Positions 5,324-38,937 of a stretch of DNA of 39,226 nt are shown here, in pieces. A program made the position numbers and the translations under genes. Position 1 is the first letter of the stretch; every line of letters starts with the position of its first letter. Origin of the DNA: Oligoflexales bacterium (GTDB taxonomy: Bacteria > Bdellovibrionota_B > Oligoflexia > Oligoflexales > Bog-1112); assembly GCA_017985985.1 (NCBI GenBank), contig JAGNWK010000019.1, positions 1 through 39,226 of the forward strand. The letters are read 5' to 3'. The notes under the pieces were generated by a model. It was not told the origin of the DNA, made no database searches, and saw only the letters and a list, made by a program, of their open reading frames with translations.

Positions 5324-6961
5324 TTAGAGCTCATCACTGTGATCTACGCGTGAAGGAGTGGCATAGTCCTCTGGATTGATTTCTTGTTTCTTTCGTAAGA
5401 AGTTCTCCACAATATTTGTGTCAATGAAATCTGTTCTCACAAAACTTGAGAAATTAGAGGCGTCTACAGAGTTATCTTTGCCAGACATGAGATAACAAGA
5501 CGAAACAACTTGGATATCCTCTTCTCTCATGATTTTGAAATCGCTGACCAGAGCCCTTGTCCCTTTGCTGTCCGTTACGGTCAACATCATAATAGATCCA
5601 TTTAGAAGACGAAATTTTATCCCAAAAAAATGAACGTCGTCTTCTGAGTTTTGCCGTAGAAGGGTTTCTATAAATTTTACAAAATCAGATGTGCTCAACT
5701 CAACTTTACACATTCGATTGTGAAACGGCATCAATTTCTCTAGTGTCGAATATGTAAGATCCCCTGGCACGAGGTCGATACGCAAGGCCCCGGTTTTTAC
5801 AAAGCAGACTTTGCCAGACGCTTCCTCGCAAAAAGCCTGACTCACGAGGCGACCAAGATTCGTCTCACCACGAGGAGCTGAAGAGCGTCCCCAAAAAAAT
5901 CCTTTACTTCTAGTAATCCTTTTCGTGAAACGATCCTTAATTCTTTCGTTATATTGTTCAAATAAGTGAAGCAACTCTGGATCTTCCGGAACGATCTTTT
6001 TTTGCTGACCAGAGTGAGAGACCTGCAACAGTTGGACTTTTGTATCCAGGTCTGAGTCTTCTTCTGGATTAATGGGGATAAGTTTATAATCCAGACTGAT
6101 AAATTTTTTATTCTTAAAGATGAGATCAACACGACCAAGAACTTTTCCATGCTCCCAAGCTTGTAAAATTGCAGTGCTTGCGACAATGTAAGCTCGGTCA
6201 AGACGTGTATGGGTATGACCACCAATGATCACATCAATTTGACCGTGCATGCTTTTCGCAAGCTCAATATCTCCAAAACCATGAAGACCGTCTTCGTTAT
6301 TAAGATAGAACCCTAAATGAGTAAGGGCTATGATAAAATCAACTTGCTTTCGCAACTGGGGCACCAATTCCTCAGCAGTCAAGAAGACATCACGAAATTC
6401 AATATTTGGGATCAAGGTCATATTTCCAGTTTGTGTCGTTGTAAAACCTATGACTCCAATATGAAGGCCACCAAACCTTTTAATGATATAAGGCTTAACT
6501 AATAGTTTTTTTTCCTTCTTGAGATATGTATTAGCCGATAGGAATGGAAATTTGGCTAAAGCTTGTTGCTTAAAAATTTTATCCAAATCTCCATCGAACT
6601 CATGATTACCCAAGGTCATCGCATCATAACCTATTATATTCATGGATATAATATCTGGCTCTGCTCGAAAAAAACCAGACTCGGGTGCGCCTGTATTGAT
6701 ATCACCTGCGGAAAGAATAAGTAAATGGCCTCCCTCACGAGCGACCTCCTTACGAATTTCATCAACTAAACTTTTTTGAGCTGCAAAACCACAAGCACGA
6801 CTTCTTTGGTCTTTCTGATAATGACCATGAGTATCGTTGGTATGCAATATTGTAATACGCACGACACTATCAACTGCTGTTTGTATCGGATCAGCAGCAT
6901 AAATTACGACATCATGAAAACAGGTCATAAAGATAATGATTTTTAAAATACGACACAGCAT
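5324..6961 (-). CDS. Bifunctional metallophosphatase/5'-nucleotidase (UshA-like), secreted
   Basis: The metallophosphoesterase motifs are present (ILHTNDTHGH; GNHEFD; GGHTHT). A signal peptide follows an ATG at 6961; the ORF-track start at 6970 is GTG. Confidence 0.75.
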   Translation of the reverse strand: MLCRILKIIIFMTCFHDVVIYAADPIQTAVDSVVRITILHTNDTHGHYQKDQRSRACGFAAQKSLVDEIRKEVAREGGHLLILSAGDINTGAPESGFFRAEPDIISMNIIGYDAMTLGNHEFDGDLDKIFKQQALAKFPFLSANTYLKKEKKLLVKPYIIKRFGGLHIGVIGFTTTQTGNMTLIPNIEFRDVFLTAEELVPQLRKQVDFIIALTHLGFYLNNEDGLHGFGDIELAKSMHGQIDVIIGGHTHTRLDRAYIVASTAILQAWEHGKVLGRVDLIFKNKKFISLDYKLIPINPEEDSDLDTKVQLLQVSHSGQQKKIVPEDPELLHLFEQYNERIKDRFTKRITRSKGFFWGRSSAPRGETNLGRLVSQAFCEEASGKVCFVKTGALRIDLVPGDLTYSTLEKLMPFHNRMCKVELSTSDFVKFIETLLRQNSEDDVHFFGIKFRLLNGSIMMLTVTDSKGTRALVSDFKIMREEDIQVVSSCYLMSGKDNSVDASNFSSFVRTDFIDTNIVENFLRKKQEINPEDYATPSRVDHSDEL

Positions 6962-7193
6962 ATCAACCACCTATCAAACAGAAGATTGAAACAGCTACAA
7001 TCAAAGTAGTTGCAGTCTATCATCGATAGGTTCTATGGTCCAGGCAGTTCGCCCAAGATCTGAGCAAACTCAAAGAAAAAAAGTCCTGGGAAAATTTTAA
7101 GGAACCATCAGCGCTCAATTACTTTAATGTGTATTTAGCTAAAGATTGTTTTAAAATCTGTGGGAAGCAGGTCCCGGTAAACGATAAGAAGAT

Positions 7194-9499: not shown

Positions 9500-10852
9500 A
9501 TGTGCACTTACTTTTTAAAACTGAAGATGGCAAAACTACAATTTGGTTTAAGCCTTCTCCTCGCCCTCCTATCTTTTTCAGGTTTTGCTAGAGAGAGGAC
9601 GAAGCTTCCGATTCGAAAGATTCTATCCACGACGGTTGATTCTTCGATCAACCCAGCGACTCTAAACTACCTTTCTACAAGTTTTGAACATGCACAAAAA
9701 CTTGGTTATGACCTCATCCTGATCAACTTGAATACCCCAGGAGGTCTCGTCTCTACGACCAAAGAGATCCTTGCCCTTATTGGTAACAGTAAAATTCCCA
9801 CCGCCATTTGGATTCATCCTGAAGGAGGCTCTGCAACAAGCGCAGGCGCCATTATCGCCAGCAGTGCTCACATATTAGCCATGTCTCCTGGTACAAATAT
9901 CGGAGCTGCTACCCCTGTACAACTAGGCAAAGATCTGGAAGACAAAGACCTGAGAAACAAAGCGATCAATGATCTAGTTTCCCTTGTGCAAAGTCTGTCC
10001 CAGTCCAGAGGCAGAAATCAAGAAGCCTTCGGCAATATGATAAAGGAAGCAGCCTCCTACCAATCTCAGAATGCTGTTGAACTCAAACTCGTCGATTTCA
10101 TCGCCAACACTCAGAATGAATTTGTTGAAAAACTTCAAGGTCGAGAGATATCGATCCAAGGTGAAACTTTTACACTTGAATGCCTGAACCCACAAGTTGA
10201 TGAACAAGCGATGGATCTCGGACAGAAACTGCTCAACATATTAGCAAGCCCAGACCTTACCTATATTCTGTTCATGCTGGGAGCAGCCCTTATCTACTTT
10301 GAGTTTCAAACGCCAGGAGGGTTTATAGCGGGTGGAGTGGGTAGCATCCTTCTCATCCTTTCAGGTATAGGGTTCCAAGTTCTTCCGCTCAACTTCGGTT
10401 CCTTAGCCCTCATCATCTTGGCATTTATCTTATTTATCCTAGAACTGTATATTACAAGTTATGGCGGACTTTCTCTCGTAGCCGTCTTATCTCTTTCTGT
10501 TGGTTCACTCTTTCTGTTCAGAACGGATAACGCTTATCTCGACATCAGCCTGCCACTTATTTTTGCAACTATCTCCTGCATAACTCTGGCAGCTCTTTCC
10601 CTAACCTTTTTAGTTTTTCGGGACTTGAAAAAAGACTCGAATAAAAAAAATTATTACTCTTTAGCAGGAAAGACAGCTACAATCCTTGCGACTCTACCCG
10701 AACTAGGGTCGAGCTCAGAGCCAGGCATCCACTGCTTTCAAGTCAAAGTTGCAGGAGAAATCTGGACAGCAAAGTCCCAGACAGCGCTCCAAATTGGTGA
10801 GACCTGTACGGTGACAGATGAAGATCGAATAAATATGTTCCTGTGGCTGTAG
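9500..10852 (+). CDS. NfeD-family membrane-bound serine protease (ClpP-like N-domain, TM region, C-terminal OB-fold)
   Basis: Signal peptide; ..ILINLNTPGGLVSTTKEI..SATSAGAIIASSAHILAMSPGTNIGAATP..; central multi-TM region; C-terminal beta domain. The gene lies immediately upstream of an SPFH gene, the classic NfeD-stomatin operon. Confidence 0.75.
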   Translation: MCTYFLKLKMAKLQFGLSLLLALLSFSGFARERTKLPIRKILSTTVDSSINPATLNYLSTSFEHAQKLGYDLILINLNTPGGLVSTTKEILALIGNSKIPTAIWIHPEGGSATSAGAIIASSAHILAMSPGTNIGAATPVQLGKDLEDKDLRNKAINDLVSLVQSLSQSRGRNQEAFGNMIKEAASYQSQNAVELKLVDFIANTQNEFVEKLQGREISIQGETFTLECLNPQVDEQAMDLGQKLLNILASPDLTYILFMLGAALIYFEFQTPGGFIAGGVGSILLILSGIGFQVLPLNFGSLALIILAFILFILELYITSYGGLSLVAVLSLSVGSLFLFRTDNAYLDISLPLIFATISCITLAALSLTFLVFRDLKKDSNKKNYYSLAGKTATILATLPELGSSSEPGIHCFQVKVAGEIWTAKSQTALQIGETCTVTDEDRINMFLWL

Positions 10853-10861
10853 TTTGACTTT

Positions 10862-10919
10862 CACCCCCACCATCAAACAAGGAGGGGGCGAAGGAAACCA
10901 GCTGCGCAGTTTGTCCCCC
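10862..10919. repeat. REP-like palindromic element (family 4; core GGAAACCAGCTGCGCAGTTTGTCCCC) in the NfeD-stomatin intergenic spacer
   Basis: The core shares the palindrome ..aaccagctgcgcagttt.. with copies at 27097, 30393, 31931, 33677 and 36201/36259. Confidence 0.55.
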
Positions 10920-10923
10920 TGAA

Positions 10924-11679
10924 ATGAATCTAAATGAGGTTTTTATGATGTTCTTCATGTTTTTTGTATCTCTGGCTGTGGTCGTTCTTTTCAACACAGT
11001 CAAAATACTAAACGAATACGAGCGAGCTGTTATTTTTCGGCTCGGTCGTTACACCGGGGTCCGAGGTCCTGGTCTTATCATACTCGTTCCTGGACTCGAG
11101 AAGATGAGAAGGGTAGATCTTCGAACAGTCACCCTAGACATCCCCTCTCAAGACATTATCACTCGCGATAACGTAACTCTAAAGGTCAATGGGGTGGTTT
11201 ACTTCAGAGTGGATAGACCCGAAAAATCTGTCATCTCTGTTGAGGACTATCTCAATGCAACTGGTCAGATCGCCCAGACAACCCTCCGTTCTGTTATCGG
11301 ACAATTCGAGCTTGATGAAATTCTATCTCAACGCGATAAGATTAACGCAAAGCTCCAACTTATCTTGGACGAACACACAGACCCTTGGGGGATCAAGGTC
11401 AGCGTTGTGGAAGTAAAAGCGATCGATCTTCCTATTGAAATGCAACGAGCCATGGCTAAACAAGCTGAAGCTGAAAGAAATAAGCGGGCAAAAGTGATCT
11501 CTGCAGAGGGCGAGCTGAATGCTGCCTATAAGCTTGCTGAGGCGGCCCAAATCTTAGGGACTCAAAAAAATGCTATTGTTCTTCGCTACCTAGACACCAT
11601 GAAAGAAATATCGACGGGAGAAGGGAAAACGACGACATTCTTCCCGCTACCCCTTGATTTCATCTCAAAATTAGGCTGA
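10924..11679 (+). CDS. SPFH/band-7 protein, stomatin-like (paraslipin)
   Basis: ..[76 protein letters not shown].. is a canonical stomatin/QmcA sequence. The better start is probably the ATG at 10945, which has a GAGG 5 nt upstream. Confidence 0.85.
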
Positions 11680-11811
11680 GAGGGCTGTCCAGGTCACACA
11701 TAAGCCTATGACTTACCTAGATAAATTAGATTAACTTTCTTTTCCTAAATATAATCCCCATAAGTTCCGAAGTTCTCCCTTAGAGATGTGTATAGAAAAA
11801 GAGAGAATTTC

Positions 11812-13362
11812 ATGCTTATGAGAAGGCTCAAGTTCATAGTCGCGCATATAGGCCGGTTTGTTCTGGTTCCGGCTGTTTTATCCTCTTTTTTGCTTTCCTG
11901 TAATGGAAAAAATTCGAGCGAGATCATCGATTCTATAGATGCAGCTCAAGTTCAACCGGATCAAAGCTCAAATAGCGATGACGCCTTTGCCAGCACAGAC
12001 CTTGCCAACGTCCAAGTTGTTAGCAAAGGATCTAGTATAAAAAACCTCCTGACTCTCCCTGACTGTGTTCCTGCCCAATATGGAAAAGTGATGTTTAGAA
12101 GTCTAGACTCTAAATTTCTCTATTGTCATAACCCCAAGCAGTGGGATGAAATCGACCTCAGAGGCAACGGAGGAGTTGCAGGGGCTGCAGGAACTCAAGG
12201 TAAGGCTGGTATTGACGGTATCCGGGGAGAAGACGGTCCAACCGGTCCTCAGGGCGATCAGGGAGCCAGGGGAGAGACAGGTGTCCCTGGTGTACAAGGG
12301 ATAAAAGGCACTCAAGGTCCTCAGGGAGAAAGGGGACCTGCAGGGGCTGTAGGGGCTGCTGGAGCAACAGGGCCTAAGGGAGATCAAGGTGTTCAGGGTC
12401 TTGAAGGACTTAAGGGTCCCGACGGTCCCCAAGGACCAGTTGGAGCAGCTGGAAACCTGGCTGGAGATAAGGGAGATGCAGGGAGTGCAGGCCCAGAGGG
12501 AGATCAGGGTATACCAGGCGTTGCCGGTGACAAAGGGGCAACCGGACCCAAGGGAGCAACCAGTACTGTAATTGGAGCTGTAGGGGATACAGGTCCGCAA
12601 GGTACACAAGGTTTGCCTGGAACTAGCGGTACAGAACGTGGCGACGTAGGGGCAATGGGTATCAAAGGCATTCAAGGCATTCAAGGCATTGCAGGCATTC
12701 AAGGCATTGCAGGCATTCAAGGCATTCAGGGCCTCAAAGGCTTTCAAGGGCCTCAAGGTCTGCAAGGGGTGAAAGGAGCAGAGGGTCCTACTGGTTCCCA
12801 AGGTGCAGTTGGAGACAAGGGATTGACAGGAGCTCAGGGAGGTAAGGGCCCTCAAGGGAGCCAGGGTGTAGTTGGTGACCAAGGTCCCCAAGGGGCAAAA
12901 GGAGCTACGGGTCTGTCAGGAAAATCTCTTCTTGTCAAAGACAGTTCGTCTTCTACCTTGTTGGGTGCATTCGTTTCCTATGGCAACCCATTTGACTCAG
13001 CAGATAGAGAGACCATCCTTGTTTACAATGATGCAGCTGATCTTGTTTTTCCCGTCAGTTCAAGTGGAAAACTTATCGATGTACCGAGCTCAACAAGCTT
13101 CATGTACTGGGAGAAAGACGGGTGCACTGGAGCTCCTTCCATTCAACTCCCTATGCCACTTGTCTTCGAGATAGCTTTCACAAGAGGCTCTGAAACTTAT
13201 AGGGTCGTTTCTCTCAATCGACCTTCTGTTCGGTCTTATACAAATGCATCCAACAGCTGTATCACTGTACCTAGCCAGCAGATCACCAACACCTATCTTG
13301 TCGAATCCACAAGTGACATCCCTAGCACGTACGCAGCACCACTCACCTACATCGTTGAATAG
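11812..13362 (+). CDS. Collagen-like triple-helix repeat lipoprotein with a non-collagenous C-terminal domain
   Basis: Signal peptide with lipobox (LLSC). There are about 250 aa of uninterrupted Gly-X-Y (GNGGVAGAAGTQGKAGIDGIRGEDGPTGPQGDQG...). A perfect 9-bp tandem repeat (ggcattcaa/ggcattgca) encodes GIQGIQGIAGIQGIAGIQGIQG at 12667-12732. A ~150 aa C-terminal globular part follows. The ORF-track start at 11788 is GTG; ATG 11812 is preferred. Confidence 0.75.
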   Translation: MLMRRLKFIVAHIGRFVLVPAVLSSFLLSCNGKNSSEIIDSIDAAQVQPDQSSNSDDAFASTDLANVQVVSKGSSIKNLLTLPDCVPAQYGKVMFRSLDSKFLYCHNPKQWDEIDLRGNGGVAGAAGTQGKAGIDGIRGEDGPTGPQGDQGARGETGVPGVQGIKGTQGPQGERGPAGAVGAAGATGPKGDQGVQGLEGLKGPDGPQGPVGAAGNLAGDKGDAGSAGPEGDQGIPGVAGDKGATGPKGATSTVIGAVGDTGPQGTQGLPGTSGTERGDVGAMGIKGIQGIQGIAGIQGIAGIQGIQGLKGFQGPQGLQGVKGAEGPTGSQGAVGDKGLTGAQGGKGPQGSQGVVGDQGPQGAKGATGLSGKSLLVKDSSSSTLLGAFVSYGNPFDSADRETILVYNDAADLVFPVSSSGKLIDVPSSTSFMYWEKDGCTGAPSIQLPMPLVFEIAFTRGSETYRVVSLNRPSVRSYTNASNSCITVPSQQITNTYLVESTSDIPSTYAAPLTYIVE

Positions 13363-13397: not shown

Positions 13398-14612
13398 CTA
13401 AGGTTGATCGTAAACAAATGGAGAGGAGAAATAATGATTAGTCCTTGCGTAGGGATGCAGTGGGGGGGGAGGGGGAGGCAAAATCGCTGTATTCCCATAA
13501 AGAGACCCTGCAGTCGCTGCCGTTGATACAGGAGGAAGCTCAGCCTCGACATTTCGCTTGATAGCAAAAACTAAAATACCCATAGGCTTTGTTGCAGATA
13601 GTCGAATATAAAATCGTTCTTGGTCATGAGAAAGGTAACTTGTCCATGTTGAAGATGCCGCTTCGACAAACAGCTCCATGTAAGGATACAGTGCTGGCAC
13701 CATATCCCGATATTGGGCAAGGCTAGCTCTTGTGAGCTGCAAAGCCTGGTAGGTGGATAGATCACCTTTAACTGTGCTCATGGCATAGCGATGAGCATGA
13801 ATGGAGGTCATAGCAACCGCATCGTGAATTCTATGCCCAAAAAAATTGTACTTATCTAGATTAAGTAAATGAGCGTCGATGCGAAATGGGGATGTGGGCA
13901 GAAGAGGTTCATCGAGTACGAATCCCCCTACGCTTTTACGTTTTATACACCCTAGAAGAAGCCTGGGATTTACCAAAATCCTGACGTTTGTGGCTCTGTT
14001 AAAAATTCCCATTAAAAGCCCATCTAGAGCAGGCTTCTGATCTCGAGGCACACTGTCATAAAGCCAGGTCTCAGCGACACTCTGAGCTATGATTTTGTCA
14101 CCGGTCGACTTCAATGGACAAGACACCCTTGTTAGAAGCTGATAGACAGCTACACTAGTTCCTACAAGAATGGCACAGGCCGAGATAAAACTGACGATAA
14201 TGCCAAGATAAGTCGTAAACGAGGCTAGGTTTGTCTCCTGGTTAGTGGATATATTGGCATTAGAAGAGGGACTAGCTGCTGCCGTGACGTTTACTGATAC
14301 ACCGATGGGTGATGGTGATGGTGATGGTGATGGTGATGGTGATGGTGATGGTGATGGTGATGGTGATGGTGATGGTGATGGTGATGGTGATGGTGATGGT
14401 AAAACTTCTTCAGGTGTTTGTGCATGAGCTTCACCAAAATTTGAGAACCAGTGCAAGGACAACTGTGTAGCTACCTGCAAGGAAGAGAGTTCGCGAGAAA
14501 ACTGCGGAGTTGGTTTCTCCCAAGAAAGAAACGCTAAGCAGATGAGAAGAAAGAATAAAAAAATATTTCCTTTTGACATTTTTTTCGATGGACAGTTTTT
14601 TGCCTGCAACAT
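13398..14612 (-). CDS. Hypothetical membrane protein with an (SP)16 linker
   Basis: Signal peptide (MSKGNIFLFFLLICLAFLSW from ATG 14579), then (SP)16 encoded by (tcacca)n, a TM helix and a ~260 aa C-terminal domain of unknown function. A poly-Pro tail is encoded over a G8 tract at 13462-13469. Confidence 0.5.
   Translation of the reverse strand: MLQAKNCPSKKMSKGNIFLFFLLICLAFLSWEKPTPQFSRELSSLQVATQLSLHWFSNFGEAHAQTPEEVLPSPSPSPSPSPSPSPSPSPSPSPSPSPSPSPIGVSVNVTAAASPSSNANISTNQETNLASFTTYLGIIVSFISACAILVGTSVAVYQLLTRVSCPLKSTGDKIIAQSVAETWLYDSVPRDQKPALDGLLMGIFNRATNVRILVNPRLLLGCIKRKSVGGFVLDEPLLPTSPFRIDAHLLNLDKYNFFGHRIHDAVAMTSIHAHRYAMSTVKGDLSTYQALQLTRASLAQYRDMVPALYPYMELFVEAASSTWTSYLSHDQERFYIRLSATKPMGILVFAIKRNVEAELPPVSTAATAGSLYGNTAILPPPPPPLHPYARTNHYFSSPFVYDQP
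14308..14400. repeat. Hexanucleotide microsatellite (GGTGAT)~15.5, coding for the (SP)n linker of the 13398..14612 CDS
   Basis: Perfect tandem hexamer visible in the sequence. It preserves the reading frame. Confidence 0.9.
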
Positions 14613-16099: not shown

Positions 16100-16127
16100 A
16101 TTTTAACGATCCTCTAGCTCCAACCTG

Positions 16128-16292: not shown

Positions 16293-16967
16293 ATGAAAAT
16301 TCTCATAGGTATAACAGGAGCTTCTGGATCCATTTACGCAGAGAGACTGCTCCAGGAGCTAGCACCGATCGAATCGGTAGAAAAAATTTATGTAGTAGCC
16401 ACAGAGAGTGGAGCCTCGGTTGCTAGGTTTGAATTAGCAGCTCAAAAAGTAAGTGAAGGCAAAAAAAAAGATCGCGAGACCAAGGCGCTATGCCTACTCA
16501 AGATCCTACAAAAAAAAATACCATCTGAACTGAGCCATAAAATCTTTGTTTTTCGCAACGATGACTTTTATGCCCCCCCTGCCAGTGGCAGCTCCGTCCC
16601 GTCCCATATGATCGTCGTCCCCTGCTCTATGGGTAGTCTGGCCCGCATCCGACATGGGCTATCTCAGAACCTTCTCGAACGATCTGCAGATGTCGTCCTT
16701 AAAGAAGGGAGACAACTCGTCATCTGCCCTCGAGAGAGCCCCTTCGGCATCATCCATCTCGAAAACATGCTAGGACTTGCCAAAATGGGCGCAAAAATCA
16801 TGCCACTTATGCCTGCTTTTTACCAAAAACCAAAAGATTTAAAGGAGTGTATCGACTTTATGGTTGGAAAGATTCTAGAGGGTTTAGGGCTTAAACACAG
16901 CCTCTATCCACCCTGGGCTATCGACCGTACCACAAAACGGGAAGTCCAGGATGGAGGGCTTGCATAG
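16293..16967 (+). CDS. ubiX: Flavin prenyltransferase UbiX
   Basis: MKILIGITGASGSIYAERLLQEL.. together with ..HMIVVPCSMGSLARIRHG.. and ..LVICPRESP.. are hallmark UbiX/Pad1 motifs. ATG start with GAAGG 7 nt upstream. Confidence 0.8.
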   Translation: MKILIGITGASGSIYAERLLQELAPIESVEKIYVVATESGASVARFELAAQKVSEGKKKDRETKALCLLKILQKKIPSELSHKIFVFRNDDFYAPPASGSSVPSHMIVVPCSMGSLARIRHGLSQNLLERSADVVLKEGRQLVICPRESPFGIIHLENMLGLAKMGAKIMPLMPAFYQKPKDLKECIDFMVGKILEGLGLKHSLYPPWAIDRTTKREVQDGGLA

Positions 16968-17064: not shown

Positions 17065-17436
17065 TTATCGATTTCTTTGTGAGTTGAAAGATCGGGGCCC
17101 TCCGCCGCCAGATCCGCTTCCACCGCGGTTAGGACGGAATCCGCCCCCACGATTTCCACCACCACCACCACCAGCACCGCCACGGTCTGGTTTGTCGTTT
17201 GCTTCGTTGACTTTCACAGTTCTGCCATCAATAGCATGTCCATCCATTTCGGAGATGGCATTAAGGGCAGCGTCATCGTCACTAAAAGTCACAAAACCAA
17301 AGCCCCTGGAACGTCCAGTCTCGCGGTCTGTGATCACTTTGGCTTCTTCAATTTCACCAAATTTCTCAAATGAAGCCCTAAGCATCTCGTCATCTGTGCC
17401 CCAGCTAAGACCGCCAACAAAAAGTTTCTTTCCCAT
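17065..17436 (-). CDS. Glycine-rich RNA-binding protein (single RRM domain)
   Basis: RNP2 KLFVGGLSW and RNP1 RGFGFVTF are present. The C-terminal tail is GGAGGGGGGNRGGGFRPNRGGSGSGGGG. The overlapping plus-strand ORF 16982..17455 is an antisense low-complexity artefact. Confidence 0.85.
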   Translation of the reverse strand: MGKKLFVGGLSWGTDDEMLRASFEKFGEIEEAKVITDRETGRSRGFGFVTFSDDDAALNAISEMDGHAIDGRTVKVNEANDKPDRGGAGGGGGGNRGGGFRPNRGGSGSGGGGPRSFNSQRNR

Positions 17437-19779: not shown

Positions 19780-20988
19780 TTGAACATTCAACTTATTGCG
19801 ACTTGCCCAGAAGAGCTACAGCCTGTTCTTATTCAAGAGCTTCAAGAACTGGGAGCCGACCAGATCAGCCCACTCTACAAAGCGATCCTGTTTGAAGTAG
19901 ATGAGGCCAAGTATTACAAGGCCCACCTTGTTCTTTCGACCGCTAGCCGAATTCTAAAAGTTTTAAAGATTTTCAAAGCTCCTGTACCCGGCACCCTTTA
20001 TGGAATTGCTAGCAAAAAAATCCCCTGGGATGAAATTTTCTCTGTTAAACAGACCTTCCGAGTGGACGGCTCTACAGAAGACCGAGGGAACAGAGCTCTC
20101 AGTTCCAATGACATTAGTAAAAAAGTAAGGCAGGGGATTGAAGATTACTTTGCAAACAAAGTGGGAAACATACCAGCTGTCGACTTAAAAGAACCCGACC
20201 TCGTCTTCGTTGCTCATATGGCAAAGCAAAAAGTCTTTCTTAGCATCGAAAGCAGTGGCAAAAAATCGCTGCACAAGCGAGGCTACAGGACGACTAGCAG
20301 CCACGAAGCCCCTCTTAAAGAAACCCTTGCGGCAGCCATTCTTCGCTTGAGTGGCTACCGAGGGGACACCGTGCTCATGGACCCCATGTGCGGCAGTGGT
20401 ACGATTGTCATAGAAGCCTGCTTCCTCGCCCTGCAAAAGGCTTGCAACATCCACCGCAAAAAGGGCGAGTTTGGTTTTGAGCAGTTTGGAGACTTCAATT
20501 CAGCTCTGTGGAGAACCGTCCAAGATGAAGTCCGTCTGTTGAAACGATCCGAGATCGATCATCCCATCTACGCTTCCGACATCCAAGAAACCTACGTAAA
20601 CGAAAGCAGACAAACAGCCCTGAGAGCTCGGGTTGAAAAATATATTCAATTCTCTCGCCAATCTTTTTTTGATGTCCAGAAGCCAGCAGAAACGGGAATC
20701 ATCGTCTCCAATCTCCCGTATGGGGAACGTCTCAATCCAAGGGACTCCTCTGGACAGGAGGCAGATCTCGAGGACTTTTATAAAAAAGTAGGGGACCACC
20801 TAAAACAACAATTTACGGGCTGGAAGGCCTGCCTGCTCGTCCAGGATGAATCCCCCTGGGAAAGTATCGGGCTCAAGCCATCTAAGAAAATTAAAATTCT
20901 TAACGGATCTATCCCTTCTAAACTCCTTATCTTCGATCTCTATGCAGGGACTAAAAAACGAAGCCTAAAACAGGGGGAAGATTCCTAA
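19780..20988 (+). CDS. THUMP-domain class I SAM-dependent RNA methyltransferase (RlmL/RlmK N-half-like)
   Basis: N-terminal THUMP-like region; SAM motif ..MDPMCGSGTIVIEA..; catalytic NLPYGERL motif. TTG start. Confidence 0.7.
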   Translation: MNIQLIATCPEELQPVLIQELQELGADQISPLYKAILFEVDEAKYYKAHLVLSTASRILKVLKIFKAPVPGTLYGIASKKIPWDEIFSVKQTFRVDGSTEDRGNRALSSNDISKKVRQGIEDYFANKVGNIPAVDLKEPDLVFVAHMAKQKVFLSIESSGKKSLHKRGYRTTSSHEAPLKETLAAAILRLSGYRGDTVLMDPMCGSGTIVIEACFLALQKACNIHRKKGEFGFEQFGDFNSALWRTVQDEVRLLKRSEIDHPIYASDIQETYVNESRQTALRARVEKYIQFSRQSFFDVQKPAETGIIVSNLPYGERLNPRDSSGQEADLEDFYKKVGDHLKQQFTGWKACLLVQDESPWESIGLKPSKKIKILNGSIPSKLLIFDLYAGTKKRSLKQGEDS

Positions 20989-21038
20989 AGAGGGGGTAAA
21001 GCCCTCTTTAGAAACAGAAACTATTGGAGTTAGTTCCT

Positions 21039-21365
21039 ATGAAACAAAAATTAATAGTCTATCTTATCCTGCTATCTTTGACTTTTTCTTCAGTTGGCTT
21101 TAGCCAAACGTCCCCTGCAGTGACCTGCAATTGCCAAACCAGCGGCAGCTGCACGACCGCTGATATCGTACTGACATCCCTAGAGGTACTGCCCACTGTT
21201 ATTTTTGCACTGGTATCTTTCGCTACAGTGTTCACCACGGTCTACTACCGCAAAAAGTGCGGTAGCACTCAAGAACAACTGCTATCAGTTAGAAGTCGTG
21301 CCTTTTCTGTGGGCCACATTGTTGCAGCAGCTCCCCCTCCCATTTACTCTGCTGCACTGCAATAG
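21039..21365 (+). CDS. Small secreted/membrane protein with NCNC..SG.CT motif (paralog 1)
   Basis: GGAG 10 nt upstream. Signal peptide, then TCNCQTSGSCTT, a hydrophobic helix and YYRKKC. Paralogous to the next ORF. Confidence 0.5.
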   Translation: MKQKLIVYLILLSLTFSSVGFSQTSPAVTCNCQTSGSCTTADIVLTSLEVLPTVIFALVSFATVFTTVYYRKKCGSTQEQLLSVRSRAFSVGHIVAAAPPPIYSAALQ

Positions 21366-21427
21366 GCCAGGCAGGATGAGCCATTCTGAAGCTGGTATCC
21401 ATTTCTACTTTTTAAAAGAAGTGAACT

Positions 21428-21778
21428 ATGAAAAAAGTCCTCATCTATTTCCTCTTTCTGTCTCTGAGCTTTTCTCCCATCGCTCTGAGCCAGACAAACA
21501 GTACAGGTTCAGTAAACTGTAACTGCCCTGCAAGTGGTGAATGTACGATCACCCTCTATATACGAACAGGCACAGGAGCCTTACCTGCTGTCCTTGCTGG
21601 GACAGTGGCTCTTCTCACAACCATGAGTACCGCCCATTACCGCCATAAAAGCAAGAACCTCTTTAATGAATTGCAGGCTTTAATGAGCCACTCACAAGCT
21701 CCTCAGATGCAAGCAGGAGCTGCACACGCTGTTCAGATGCCATTGCCTAGCTCCCGCTTTCCTGGCTACGCCAACTGA
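21428..21778 (+). CDS. Small secreted/membrane protein with NCNC..SG.CT motif (paralog 2)
   Basis: MKKVLIYFLFLSLSFSPIALSQ signal peptide, then VNCNCPASGECTI, a hydrophobic helix and HYRHKSK. Same architecture as 21039..21365. Confidence 0.5.
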   Translation: MKKVLIYFLFLSLSFSPIALSQTNSTGSVNCNCPASGECTITLYIRTGTGALPAVLAGTVALLTTMSTAHYRHKSKNLFNELQALMSHSQAPQMQAGAAHAVQMPLPSSRFPGYAN

Positions 21779-22076
21779 TGCACTATAAAGCTCTGTGAAC
21801 TACAGCCATCCTAGAGAGTGGGAAGTGATTTTTTCAAAGTCTCCAAGTCTTGGCTGAGCTCTTCGAAGGGTAGTAGGATAGGGTTCACGCTGTTAGCTGC
21901 AGAGGATGTTTCCGCTTTTGGATCGGACACCATAAGAACTTCGATCTGATTAGGTAAAGTTATGGCTTTTGGAGGTAGGGAGTCTTCTTTTTTGCTTGGC
22001 TTGCACTAAAAAACACATATCGATAACATTCGATCCAATCAGAAAAAAAGGTAAAGATTTTCCAGTCAAACATTTT

Positions 22077-23624
22077 TTACTTATGTTTAATTTTTTGCCA
22101 GTAGGAATCAAACTGGAAAGAGGGGGAGTGATTGCCTCGATGACAGGTGAGGCAGACCTCTCGAGCAGCGAGGGATCCAGGAGCAGTATCCCTCTTGAGA
22201 GGATTTTTGACATGTTCCGCCCTGGCTCCATGACAGTTCTCACATTGAACCCCTTTGAATTGGGGGGTCAACTGCTCTGAAATAAAACCACCTCGACTTT
22301 GAAGACCCAAAACATGGCAGGAGACACAGTCGGAATCTTCATTTTTTTGCTTTTTTTGCAGAGTCTCATAAGCCTTTGCATGATGAGAGTCCTTCCAAAC
22401 GGCAGCCGCCTGAACATGACAGGAGGAACAGGCTTCTGCCCCTGCAAAAGGTGAGCTTTTCAGATCCTCTCGCTTCTTTAGTTGCTGCTTTTGAAAATCC
22501 TCTGCCGTTTCTTTTGTATAGGTCTCTAGTAGGGATTTAAGAGGAGAGACCTCTTCATAGTCTTGAGTCAACCACGTCACATAGATAAGGTTTGAATCTT
22601 TTTTTATGAACCCTTGGATGGGGACCGTTAAAAACTTCGATTCCTCTTTTTTTGTTACGCTCTCCTTTTGGAAAAGCCCGTTAAGAGTCGATGATTCTAA
22701 ACTGCTCTCCTCAGACTTCAAAATTGCTGCAAGGGAAAGGGCTTGGTTGCGACGAAGAGCCCCCCCCCGCAAGACACCCTTACCTTCCAAAGGGACCATA
22801 CGAATAGCTTTAGTGTTGAACGCCGACTCCTGACGAGAAAGTCGCACAAGAAGATCTTCATTCGTCTTCTCAGCATCCACAGCACGGTCTTCCGTTCGTT
22901 TGTCCCTTGAACTAGAGCTGATGATTTCGGCAAAAAGACCACTTTCATCAATCTTCGTCAAAACTTCATCCGGTCCTGAAAACAGGAGCACCGAAAAAGC
23001 ATCCCGGTGAGAAGCTAGTATGCTTTCCCAAGATTTTCTGAGTTCTGGGCCCCAGGTAAGGACTTGCGATTCTAGGCGCTCATCCCACACAAAACCGAGA
23101 ATAAGTGTCGTTCCCACCTGCCCCTTACTGAGAACGATCTGGGAAGAAAAATTTTTCAGGCCTAAAAAAGAAGAAGATTTTGATATTGCTGTTTTGACAT
23201 TACTGAGAACGAAGGGTCTGCGACTGGCAAGGAGGTCTGTATCCGGATGGGCAGAGAGTAGGGCAAGAAGTTCTTCCTTGTTCAGCAAAGCTGCATCTGG
23301 CTGCAGCGAGTCCAGTGCCTGAATGAGGTAGCGACTCTTGATCGGATTGCGATCCTGCCTATCGATTTGATCACCTAGGTCAAACAAGAAAAGAGAGGGT
23401 TCAGCAGCCCTCTCCCTTGCTACAAGAGTCGCTAGACGTCTCACCCCTCCCAGATCAGAACGGGGGTCACAGCCACAAGGGGCCAAGTCCCCTTGCAGGC
23501 TCCCATAAGCTAACCAAGGTGGATCAGTTGGCTCCCTATCTTTGCTAGCGGCAAAGTTAGGTCCAAACAAGATGAGCGAGATAACGAATAGAAAAAAATA
23601 TTCCCGCAAGCCCCCCCCTAACAT
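22077..23624 (-). CDS. Secreted multiheme c-type cytochrome (4 CxxCH) with a large N-terminal non-heme domain
   Basis: Signal peptide. The C-terminal ~130 aa contains CSSCH, CVSCH, CENCH and CLTCH. The N-terminal ~380 aa has no heme motif (..DLAPCGCDPRSDLGGVRRLATL..). A G8 tract follows the ATG directly (atg tta ggg ggg ggc) and a G9 tract lies internally at 22760-22768. Confidence 0.65.
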   Translation of the reverse strand: MLGGGLREYFFLFVISLILFGPNFAASKDREPTDPPWLAYGSLQGDLAPCGCDPRSDLGGVRRLATLVARERAAEPSLFLFDLGDQIDRQDRNPIKSRYLIQALDSLQPDAALLNKEELLALLSAHPDTDLLASRRPFVLSNVKTAISKSSSFLGLKNFSSQIVLSKGQVGTTLILGFVWDERLESQVLTWGPELRKSWESILASHRDAFSVLLFSGPDEVLTKIDESGLFAEIISSSSRDKRTEDRAVDAEKTNEDLLVRLSRQESAFNTKAIRMVPLEGKGVLRGGALRRNQALSLAAILKSEESSLESSTLNGLFQKESVTKKEESKFLTVPIQGFIKKDSNLIYVTWLTQDYEEVSPLKSLLETYTKETAEDFQKQQLKKREDLKSSPFAGAEACSSCHVQAAAVWKDSHHAKAYETLQKKQKNEDSDCVSCHVLGLQSRGGFISEQLTPQFKGVQCENCHGARAEHVKNPLKRDTAPGSLAAREVCLTCHRGNHSPSFQFDSYWQKIKHK

Positions 23625-25792: not shown

Positions 25793-25869
25793 TGCGGGAG
25801 TAGCTCAGTTGGCTAGAGCGTCGCGTTGCCATCGCGAAGGTCGAGGGTTCGAGTCCCTTTTCCCGCTCC
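25793..25869 (+). tRNA. tRNA-Gly (anticodon GCC)
   Basis: Cloverleaf: acceptor GCGGGAG/ttCCCGC; D-arm GCTC-AGTTGGCTA-GAGC; anticodon stem TCGCG / loop TTGCCAT / CGCGA; T-arm GAGGG-TTCGAGT-CCCTT; discriminator T; CCA encoded. Near-identical to E. coli glyV. Confidence 0.9.
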
Positions 25870-38052: not shown

Positions 38053-38937
38053 CTAACGAACTTTGAGATCACCGATAGGAAGAAGAATATTCGCTGCGCC
38101 GCCAGAACTTCCTCCACCACCGACAACGAGTGGTGATATCCCGTTCCACTTCTCCACAATTTGCAGCTGCACAAGACCTGGACTATCTTGTAAAGCTTTA
38201 CCGCGGACACGTATGGCTTCTGCTTCTCCGTTCGCACGAATGATAGCTGTACTTGCTTCGATCTCAGCTTTTTGCTGAATAAACTTAGCTTTTGCAGCTT
38301 CTTGTTCTTGAACCATTTTAGCTTCGATGGCAGCTTCCAATTCTTTAGAGAGAGTGACGTTTTGAATCACGATATCTTCGATGACTATCAAGTCACCCAC
38401 CTTGTTTCTGGCTGCTGCTAAAGCTTTGATTTTAACGTCTTCACGTCTCTTCACGATGTGCTCAGCACTTTGCAGCGCTCCCACCTCTTTGAGAGCCTCA
38501 CTGACCCGGGGTGCAATCAAACTGTCAAAAGGATCCCCTGCATAGTCTTGGAAGATCCTCACAATCATACTTTCAGGGAAGCGATAAAGAACTTTGAGTT
38601 CAATGTTGATTTGCTGCAAATCAGATGAATAGCAGTCCTCTCGCATAGACTGCGTCTGCTGCCGCACAGAAATCGGCAAGACACTTGTGATCATCGGAGT
38701 TTTAAAGCCCAGACCTTCAGGTGCAAAAATAGGAGAAACTTTCCCCATCGTCACCAAAACCCCACGATGCCCTGGAGGGATGACAAAATAGCCGCCAAAA
38801 ATCAAGAAGGTTCCAGCGAGAAGCAGTATCAAGCCTCCTACCACTGTTTTATTAACTTTGAGATTATTTAAAAACTGATCAAATTCGTCCAAAACATACT
38901 CCTCATTCGTTTCAAAAAATGGATCAAAAAAGAACAT
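38053..38937 (-). CDS. SPFH/band-7 protein, prohibitin/HflC-like
   Basis: N-terminal TM helix (TVVGGLILLLAGTFLIFGGYFVIPPGHRGVLVTMGKV), a PHB domain, and a C-terminal coiled-coil rich in A/E/K (..LSKELEAAIEAKMVQEQEAAKAKFIQQKAEIEAS..). Confidence 0.75.
   Translation of the reverse strand: MFFFDPFFETNEEYVLDEFDQFLNNLKVNKTVVGGLILLLAGTFLIFGGYFVIPPGHRGVLVTMGKVSPIFAPEGLGFKTPMITSVLPISVRQQTQSMREDCYSSDLQQINIELKVLYRFPESMIVRIFQDYAGDPFDSLIAPRVSEALKEVGALQSAEHIVKRREDVKIKALAAARNKVGDLIVIEDIVIQNVTLSKELEAAIEAKMVQEQEAAKAKFIQQKAEIEASTAIIRANGEAEAIRVRGKALQDSPGLVQLQIVEKWNGISPLVVGGGGSSGGAANILLPIGDLKVR

Follow-up and report, generated by a model that had tools for sequence, protein, structure and literature searches.

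Two adjacent small open reading frames (ORFs) of an uncultured Oligoflexales bacterium, here called A and B, are genuine and native genes that descend from an ancient duplication. They lie in tandem on contig JAGNWK010000019.1, all 39,226 nucleotides of which were analysed (hereafter the 39-kb window, with roughly 33 ORFs); the coordinates of their parts are collected in Table 1. Their products are probably Sec-exported mini-proteins of the inner membrane, each presenting a predicted stub with three thiols to the periplasm. Tentatively, and with a little less than even confidence, we read them as a lineage-restricted pair of type I inner-membrane mini-proteins that would dimerise and play an accessory or regulatory role.

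An anciently duplicated gene pair

A and B share 34% identity over 88 amino acids (aa) in BLASTP (E 2e-17). Since signal peptides and transmembrane (TM) helices look alike by composition alone, ORF B was shuffled within each of its regions to remove such effects, and none of 2000 region-preserving shuffles reached the A-B alignment score of 148 (z 12.4). The tandem paralogous pair that the original prediction had placed at these positions is thus borne out. The ectodomain (shuffle z 5.6) and the TM plus juxtamembrane part (z 8.4) are each significant by themselves, and the order of residues is also kept in the N-terminal hydrophobic segment (z 5.7, 0 of 5000 shuffles), whereas the two tails, aligned with each other, display no similarity (z -1.2). 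No third copy is present in the 39-kb window.

At the codon level, nucleotide identity between A and B amounts to 52, 66 and 42% at positions 1, 2 and 3, and the proportion of synonymous differences (pS 0.73-0.85) is saturated, against a nonsynonymous pN of 0.38. The same codon is used for 14 of the 35 identical residues and a different one for the other 21; among the invariant codons of the cysteine motif (C-N-C, S-G and C-T), 5 of 7 differ synonymously. The three Cys, the S-G pair and the L-P and Y-R-x-K boundaries have nevertheless been retained across this saturated divergence. This codon-position pattern, together with the saturated synonymous sites, indicates coding sequences under purifying selection since an old duplication. 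As the codon-usage score, GC and third-position GC (GC3) of A and B fall inside the range of the other window ORFs (n=31 analysed), the pair is native and not recently acquired.

It could be objected that A and B are not genes, being either chance ORFs or a duplicated non-coding segment, because protein searches found no homologues and because the protein collection lists ORF A under neither an NCBI accession nor a name, unlike ORF B and the neighbouring cytochrome (KA436_04580). This view is hardly credible: the similarity lies at the protein level, with identity peaking at the second codon position and lowest at the third, most identical residues use different codons, both frames are still open after saturation of synonymous sites, codon usage is native, the grammar of signal peptide, TM helix and positive-inside charges is intact in both, and no Rfam family matches the A/B region. 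ORF A may simply be unannotated in the GenBank record.

Both ORFs are intact on Logan contigs L001, L002 and L003 of three independent sequencing runs (SRR25018341, SRR21875704 and SRR11088458), on which independent gene calls likewise give products of 108 and 116 aa. These contigs are at least 99.9% identical, so that population variation brings no evolutionary information. Their ends recur at positions 16118 (L001, L002) and 22104 (L001, L003), which suggests that the assembly graph repeatedly branches at these sites owing to strain variation or repeats.

The position of a GGAG element favours ATG 21039 as the start of ORF A over an upstream TTG at 21024. ORF B follows on the same strand after 62 nt and, no terminator having been found, the two possibly form an operon. 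The rlmL-like gene ends 50 nt before ORF A. Scans of positions 20700-22300 called neither an intrinsic terminator (consensus scan) nor a sigma-70-like promoter on the + strand, and the hairpin over the rlmL-like stop codon was not called either. Given the short gap and these negative scans, co-transcription of rlmL and ORF A is possible as well. The 298-nt convergent spacer 3' of ORF B folds no better than shuffled sequences (z 0.82).

Predicted architecture and topology

The two products exhibit the same order of parts: a signal peptide, a Ser/Thr-rich Cys stretch of 20-28 residues, Leu-Pro, a helix, Y-R-x-K and a tail of 35-45 residues. Both carry the features of the structural class of Sec-exported bitopic (type I) proteins, namely a signal peptide that obeys the -3/-1 rule and a helix followed by basic residues. 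The h-regions count 15-16 residues, and an S-Q-T junction at the predicted cleavage site is common to A and B. The consensus of the Cys motif is V-[T/N]-C-N-C-[Q/P]-[T/A]-S-G-[S/E]-C-T, which contains three Cys spaced C-x-C-x5-C. ORF A has a fourth Cys, C74 (RKKCGS), which lies beyond the basic cluster and is predicted to be cytoplasmic; B has Ser at this site. With RKK or RHKSK after the helix, the positive-inside rule predicts a periplasmic Cys motif and a cytoplasmic tail, whether or not the signal peptide is cleaved. Judged from these sequence features, an architecture of Sec-exported inner-membrane mini-proteins with a three-thiol periplasmic stub is probable. Neither product has the lipobox [LVI][ASTVI][GAS]C: the first Cys lies 8-9 residues past the predicted cut, and the residues just before it, A-V-T and S-V-N, do not suit a lipobox.

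All four parts first noticed in the two ORFs occur in both: the signal peptide, the Cys motif, the hydrophobic helix and the basic cluster. The initial wording of the motif holds in part: the Cys motif is indeed shared, but N-C-N-C is true for B only and [V/T]-C for A only. The four-Cys mini-domain proposed at the same time has to be given up, since only three Cys are conserved and the fourth one of A is predicted to be cytoplasmic. As for the single-pass anchor, a helix is found in both products, while its anchoring role is predicted, with more reserve for B (the maximum of the Kyte-Doolittle 19-residue mean in the second hydrophobic segment is 1.52, against 2.12 for A).

Another topology has to be weighed against the type I arrangement. 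In a two-helix hairpin, the N-terminus would be an uncleaved signal anchor, both ends of the protein would be cytoplasmic (N-in/C-in) and a short loop in the periplasm would hold the Cys motif. What cleaved signal peptides keep is usually hydrophobicity alone, yet in the A/B pair the order of residues in the N-terminal segment is kept while the tails have lost their similarity; the positive charges at both ends (MKQK and YYRKK) also fit such a hairpin. On the other hand, the signal-peptidase I sites are canonical (G-F-S/Q and A-L-S/Q), B has a helix-breaking Pro at -5, the S-Q-T junction is conserved, and the h-region is short for a stable TM helix. The leftover N-terminal similarity may also reflect plain common ancestry. 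We consider the hairpin unlikely; the type I arrangement is retained below.

Orphan status and possible function

No family could be named for A and B at the outset, and none emerged from any of the collections searched. ORF A has no match in Pfam or NCBIfam, and ORF B gave only noise there (DUF1263, E 0.053, 14 bits vs 27; FtsL, E 0.078, 12.9 vs 42.45). PHROGs and PADLOC returned nothing at E <= 1 for either, and a profile of A and B matched none of 177,635 distinct PDB sequences at E <= 10. The profile search for relatives of the motif that the original prediction had called for was run exhaustively with HMMER on 1.84e9 (1.84 billion) cluster-representative proteins; at its reporting limit of E <= 0.001, A and B alone came back. 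Word-indexed searches of 5.8e9 proteins found self-matches only, and no relatives turned up when metagenome contigs of JGI and the contigs of IMG/VR were scanned with peptide patterns. A degenerate DNA pattern (C-N-C-x2-S-G-x-C-T, 25-35 aa, then Y-R-x-K) was also scanned, in metagenome and GTDB genome collections, the first position being limited in each collection to a single one of the two Cys codons. It yielded 9 loci (5 and 4, respectively), about the chance number, all with in-frame stops or frameshifts.

The neighbouring genes also have only distant relatives: the rlmL-like one has no close relative in 185,579 GTDB species representatives, and the best homologues of the cytochrome are about 41% identical at most. 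Thin sampling of the lineage may thus explain the orphan status, and in such distant genomes the orthologues of a fast-evolving 110-aa membrane protein are probably below detection.

In the favoured reading of a dimerising type I pair, both precursors would be exported by Sec and probably cleaved after S22 (A) or S21 (B), and the mature chains of 86 and 95 residues would be kept in the inner membrane as type I bitopic proteins. About 20-28 residues bearing C-x-C-x5-C would face the periplasm, one Thr/Ser-rich helix starting from the conserved Leu-Pro would span the membrane, and the Y-R-x-K cluster would act as a stop-transfer signal ahead of the divergent cytoplasmic tail of 35-45 residues. 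A-B dimers or homodimers could then form via inter-chain disulphides or, less likely, via a thiophilic metal shared by 3 + 3 Cys. Such a dimer would be a small accessory or regulatory subunit through which a larger membrane partner is coupled to the redox or metal state of the periplasm, the different tails providing A and B with different cytoplasmic contacts. Oligomerisation is favoured by the odd number of periplasmic thiols, the weakly hydrophobic and hydroxyl-rich helices, the likely co-transcription of two diverged copies and the divergence of their tails. Cleavage, topology, dimerisation, thiol chemistry and regulatory role are all what we infer; taken by itself, a dimeric redox- or metal-adaptor function read from this anatomy is doubtful.

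Several observations weigh against this reading. No homologue was detected outside this organism, so that conservation of the motif is seen in A versus B only. At five loci encoding homologues of the neighbouring cytochrome (L004-L008), there is neither synteny nor an A/B-like ORF nor rlmL, and a scan of their six-frame ORFs with hidden Markov models and regular expressions for A and B gave only noise. Signal-peptide cleavage was deduced by the -3/-1 rule and not by a trained predictor, and the conserved N-terminal segment could mean a retained first TM helix. The helix of ORF B is only borderline hydrophobic, and the AlphaFold2 (AF2) model obtained on the two-sequence alignment, which agrees with the proposed topology in its helices 3-16 and 41-88 and coil 17-40, is of low confidence (pLDDT 49.7). 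Nor is there a signal of a packing interface, since the clustering of conserved TM residues on a single helix face is not significant (P 0.11-0.21).

By analogy, the nearest bacterial precedent for this proposal is enterobacterial MgrB, in which C28 and C39 are needed for PhoQ inhibition and whose activity is tied to the periplasmic redox state (PMC8404706). MgrB is likewise a tiny single-pass inner-membrane protein, with a periplasmic segment of roughly 20 residues and critical conserved Cys. It differs from A and B by its size (47 aa), the absence of a cleaved signal peptide, its N-in/C-out orientation, its two Cys and essentially no cytoplasmic tail. No sequence similarity links it to A or B, which have no Pfam or NCBIfam match, and the likeness is an analogy only.

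Instead of disulphides, the thiols could form a membrane-tethered periplasmic metal site, in which Cu(I), Zn(II) or Hg(II) would be held by three thiolates per chain or six per dimer, for a chaperone, sensor or sequestration function. Cu(I) is bound by the thiolates of a C-x-C and additional Cys in CopY/Ace1 (CxCx4-5CxC) and in membrane-anchored Cox11 (CFCF plus a third Cys), which is tethered by one TM helix and faces the periplasm or the intermembrane space. Cox11/CtaG, CopY and Ace1 resemble A and B in their C-x-C with a nearby Cys and would share with them three thiolates in each chain and a metal site formed by a dimer, and the three-Cys motif of A and B has been kept across saturated divergence. 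However, Cox11 is anchored by its N-terminus and possesses an Ig-like domain of roughly 130 residues, CopY and Ace1 bind DNA in the cytoplasm, and no homology to A or B was detected for any of them. The window offers no copper or cytochrome-oxidase assembly context, and encodes no P-type ATPase, CusF/CopZ-type protein, MerR/CsoR-type regulator or mer genes. Moreover, neither His nor Met stands beside the Cys residues, DsbA normally oxidises thiols of this kind in the periplasm, and A and B have no sequence similarity to any metal-binding family. We hold this alternative to be quite unlikely, somewhat more so than the hairpin; both are variants of the favoured picture of a dimerising type I pair.

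The order of parts in A and B is also that of DAP12, DAP10, CD3-zeta and FcR-gamma, which have a signal peptide, a Cys ectodomain of 10-30 residues (C-x-C in DAP12), disulphide-linked dimers, a polar TM helix, basic residues and a tail with a Tyr motif. Their intramembrane Asp and their ITAM or YxxM motifs are absent in A and B, which are bacterial, and the resemblance would be a convergent architecture at most. In its boldest form, the proposal would make A and B a novel family of heterodimeric 'cysteine-knuckle' membrane adaptors, in which a shared six-thiolate disulphide or metal centre is joined to tails (one with PPxY) that relay redox or metal state or host contact to partners in the cytoplasm, as a bacterial counterpart of DAP12/CD3-zeta in an organism whose genes also include eukaryote-like OTU, leucine-rich-repeat, RRM and collagen ones. 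This is improbable.

The 39-kb window encodes no RiPP-modifying, sortase-like, metal-homeostasis, phage or defence gene. A pair of precursors of ribosomally synthesised and post-translationally modified peptides (RiPPs), akin to a two-component lanthipeptide, would have the Ser-, Thr- and Cys-rich motif region (TCNCQTSGSCTT in A, NCNCPASGECTIT in B) as core, and two tandem genes of precursor size would suit it. Yet the chain runs on for some 70-75 residues after this 'core', with a helix and a basic cluster among them, the N-terminus is a classical Sec signal and not a RiPP leader, and LanB, LanC, LanM, radical-SAM, YcaO, peptidase-ABC exporter and immunity genes are all missing from the window, its sole PF02441 protein being UbiX. 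The peptide-precursor pair, entertained when the ORFs were first noticed, is thus set aside as extremely improbable; the small surface ligand and the metal site entertained with it are both conceivable.

Equally improbable is a role as sorting substrates of the PEP-CTERM/exosortase, GlyGly-CTERM/rhombosortase or LPXTG type, whose cleavage would display the Cys peptide. The short L-P-x-V motif (LPTV or LPAV), the hydrophobic helix and the basic cluster (YYRKK or HYRHK) do follow the order of such tripartite signals. These signals belong, however, at the extreme C-terminus, whereas 35-45 residues come after the basic cluster in A and B; no NCBIfam or Pfam sorting-domain model matches, no exosortase, rhombosortase or sortase gene occurs in the window, and the displayed 'cargo' would be just about 28 residues long. 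Precursors of filamentous-phage major coat proteins (M13 procoat type) also fit a signal peptide, an exposed stretch of about 20 residues, a single TM helix and a basic segment at the C-terminus into fewer than 120 aa. Compared with them, A and B have a far longer tail, three Cys and a chromosomal housekeeping context rather than a prophage; their similarity to M13 gp8 is not significant, and they have no PHROG match and no relative on viral contigs.

Genomic surroundings and meaning

Table 1. Positions of ORFs A and B, their parts and neighbouring genes in the 39-kb window.
Feature	Position	Strand	Details
ORF A, predicted small exported membrane protein (P0001)	21039..21365	+	108 aa; from ORF list, paralogy and coding signature
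ORF A protein			Predicted signal peptide MKQKLIVYLILLSLTFSSVGFS / mature chain QTSPAVTCNCQTSGSCTTADIVLTSLEVLPTVIFALVSFATVFTTVYYRKKCGSTQEQLLSVRSRAFSVGHIVAAAPPPIYSAALQ; predicted cut between the two parts
GGAG Shine-Dalgarno-like element	21026..21029	+	9 nt 5' of ORF A ATG; read from sequence
ORF A signal peptide, Sec-type, residues 1-22	21039..21104	+	Predicted; MKQK n-region, 15-residue h-region, VGFS/Q, Gly at -3, Ser at -1
ORF A motif V-T-C-N-C-Q-T-S-G-S-C-T, residues 28-39	21120..21155	+	C30, C32, C38; from alignment, ectodomain z 5.6
ORF A hydrophobic Thr/Ser-rich helix and basic stop-transfer cluster, residues 51-73	21189..21257	+	Predicted; LPTVIFALVSFATVFTTVYY-RKK
ORF A predicted cytoplasmic tail, residues 74-108	21258..21362	+	Has C74, ends PPPIYSAALQ; low pLDDT
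ORF B, paralogue of ORF A (P0002 = MBP6217843.1)	21428..21778	+	116 aa; locus tag KA436_04575, 'hypothetical protein', Oligoflexales bacterium metagenome-assembled genome
ORF B protein			Predicted signal peptide MKKVLIYFLFLSLSFSPIALS / mature chain QTNSTGSVNCNCPASGECTITLYIRTGTGALPAVLAGTVALLTTMSTAHYRHKSKNLFNELQALMSHSQAPQMQAGAAHAVQMPLPSSRFPGYAN; predicted cut between the two parts
ORF B signal peptide, Sec-type, residues 1-21	21428..21490	+	MKK, h-region, IALS/Q, Ala at -3, Ser at -1; cleavage predicted
ORF B motif V-N-C-N-C-P-A-S-G-E-C-T, residues 29-40	21512..21547	+	C31, C33, C39; from alignment
Cys-containing peptide			QTSPAVTCNCQTSGSCTTAD
ORF B weakly hydrophobic helix and basic cluster, residues 52-74	21581..21649	+	Predicted; LPAVLAGTVALLTTMSTAHY-RHK; aligned to the ORF A helix
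ORF B predicted cytoplasmic tail, residues 72-116	21641..21775	+	Sequence unrelated to the ORF A tail
THUMP/RlmL-type methyltransferase gene (rlmL-like)	19780-20988	+	Upstream neighbour
Hairpin over rlmL-like stop codon	20987..21009	+	8-bp stem AAAGAGGG / CCCTCTTT, 7-nt loop GGTAAAG, no U-tract; read from sequence
UshA-like/multihaem cytochrome gene	22077-23624	-	Downstream, convergent; then folB, htpX
UbiX gene	16293-16967		Sole PF02441 flavoprotein of the window
Eukaryote-like protein genes (given jointly)	11788-13362; 17065-17436; 27288-28253; 28399-30384; 13398-14612	+; -; +; -; -

None of the neighbouring genes suggests a function for A and B. Further upstream of the rlmL-like gene are found genes for a proline dehydrogenase, an RRM protein and UbiX. 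The convergent downstream neighbour encodes an UshA-like part fused to a multihaem c554-type cytochrome. It matches NF041198, 'UshA_like_PCGU (seleno)protein', below the cutoff (148 bits vs 275), and with its P-C-G-C it apparently carries Cys at the possible selenocysteine site of that family, as inferred from the family name. About 37 near-full-length homologues, 25-41% identical, occur in varied neighbourhoods. A functional link between A/B and this cytochrome, with its PCGC motif, was considered and rejected, as the genes lie on opposite strands and homologues of the cytochrome elsewhere have no A/B neighbours. A second UshA-type 5'-nucleotidase (Metallophos + 5_nucleotid_C) is encoded at 5324-6970 (-).

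The window also encodes several eukaryote-like proteins: one with collagen triple-helix repeats, an RRM_1 protein, an OTU-like cysteine protease, a leucine-rich repeat (LRR) protein, and a protein with a signal peptide, (SP)n repeats, a TM segment and a poly-Pro end. Oligoflexales have been associated with algal and cnidarian (anemone) hosts (PMC10701089, PMC12865303), and in agreement with these papers the cluster suggests a host- or prey-associated lifestyle; it has no direct bearing on A and B. Nonetheless, one could imagine A and B as host-directed eukaryote-like type I proteins that mimic single-pass adaptors and work at or inside the cells of a eukaryotic host or prey. Apart from this gene content and these host associations, PPPIY near the end of the A tail fits PPxY, and the architecture is like that of DAP10, DAP12 and CD3-zeta. 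This is very improbable. Similarity to DAP10 and DAP12 is not significant (z 0.6-3.5, the best value, 3.5, occurring in 1 of 6 comparisons with an unrestricted shuffle), B has no PPxY, and four matching residues in a tail of 35 prove little. Besides, proteins with a Sec signal and a stop-transfer helix would stay in the inner membrane of the bacterium itself, and no adjacent secretion-system gene offers them a delivery route.

Other genes of the window are recorded here for their own sake. In a 243-aa secreted-looking protein (33728-34459, -), for which no curated family matches, a weak Intein_splicing/Hint-like match below threshold (E 0.036) comes after the Cys-rich stretch GGNCLCPCSCAS. The product of 32919-33650 (-), also of 243 aa and with a signal peptide, carries HEFLH (HExxH) with weak reprolysin-like metallopeptidase matches (E 0.02-0.05); it is possibly an orphan zinc protease. 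Among the ordinary features, an NfeD-SPFH/Band 7 gene pair lies at 9500-11679 (+), a second SPFH gene at 38053-38937 (-) and one tRNA gene at 25794-25867 (+).

The sequence family formed by A and B is new, yet its kind is very common: small ORFan membrane proteins from a lineage that is sparsely sampled. They are not a RiPP, sorting-signal, phage or defence element, and their orphan status survives exhaustive searching. If they function as proposed here, with a three-Cys stub behind a signal peptide, this type would join the few small bacterial membrane proteins whose action is known, and it could point to a redox- or metal-sensing accessory subunit in the barely studied Oligoflexales.

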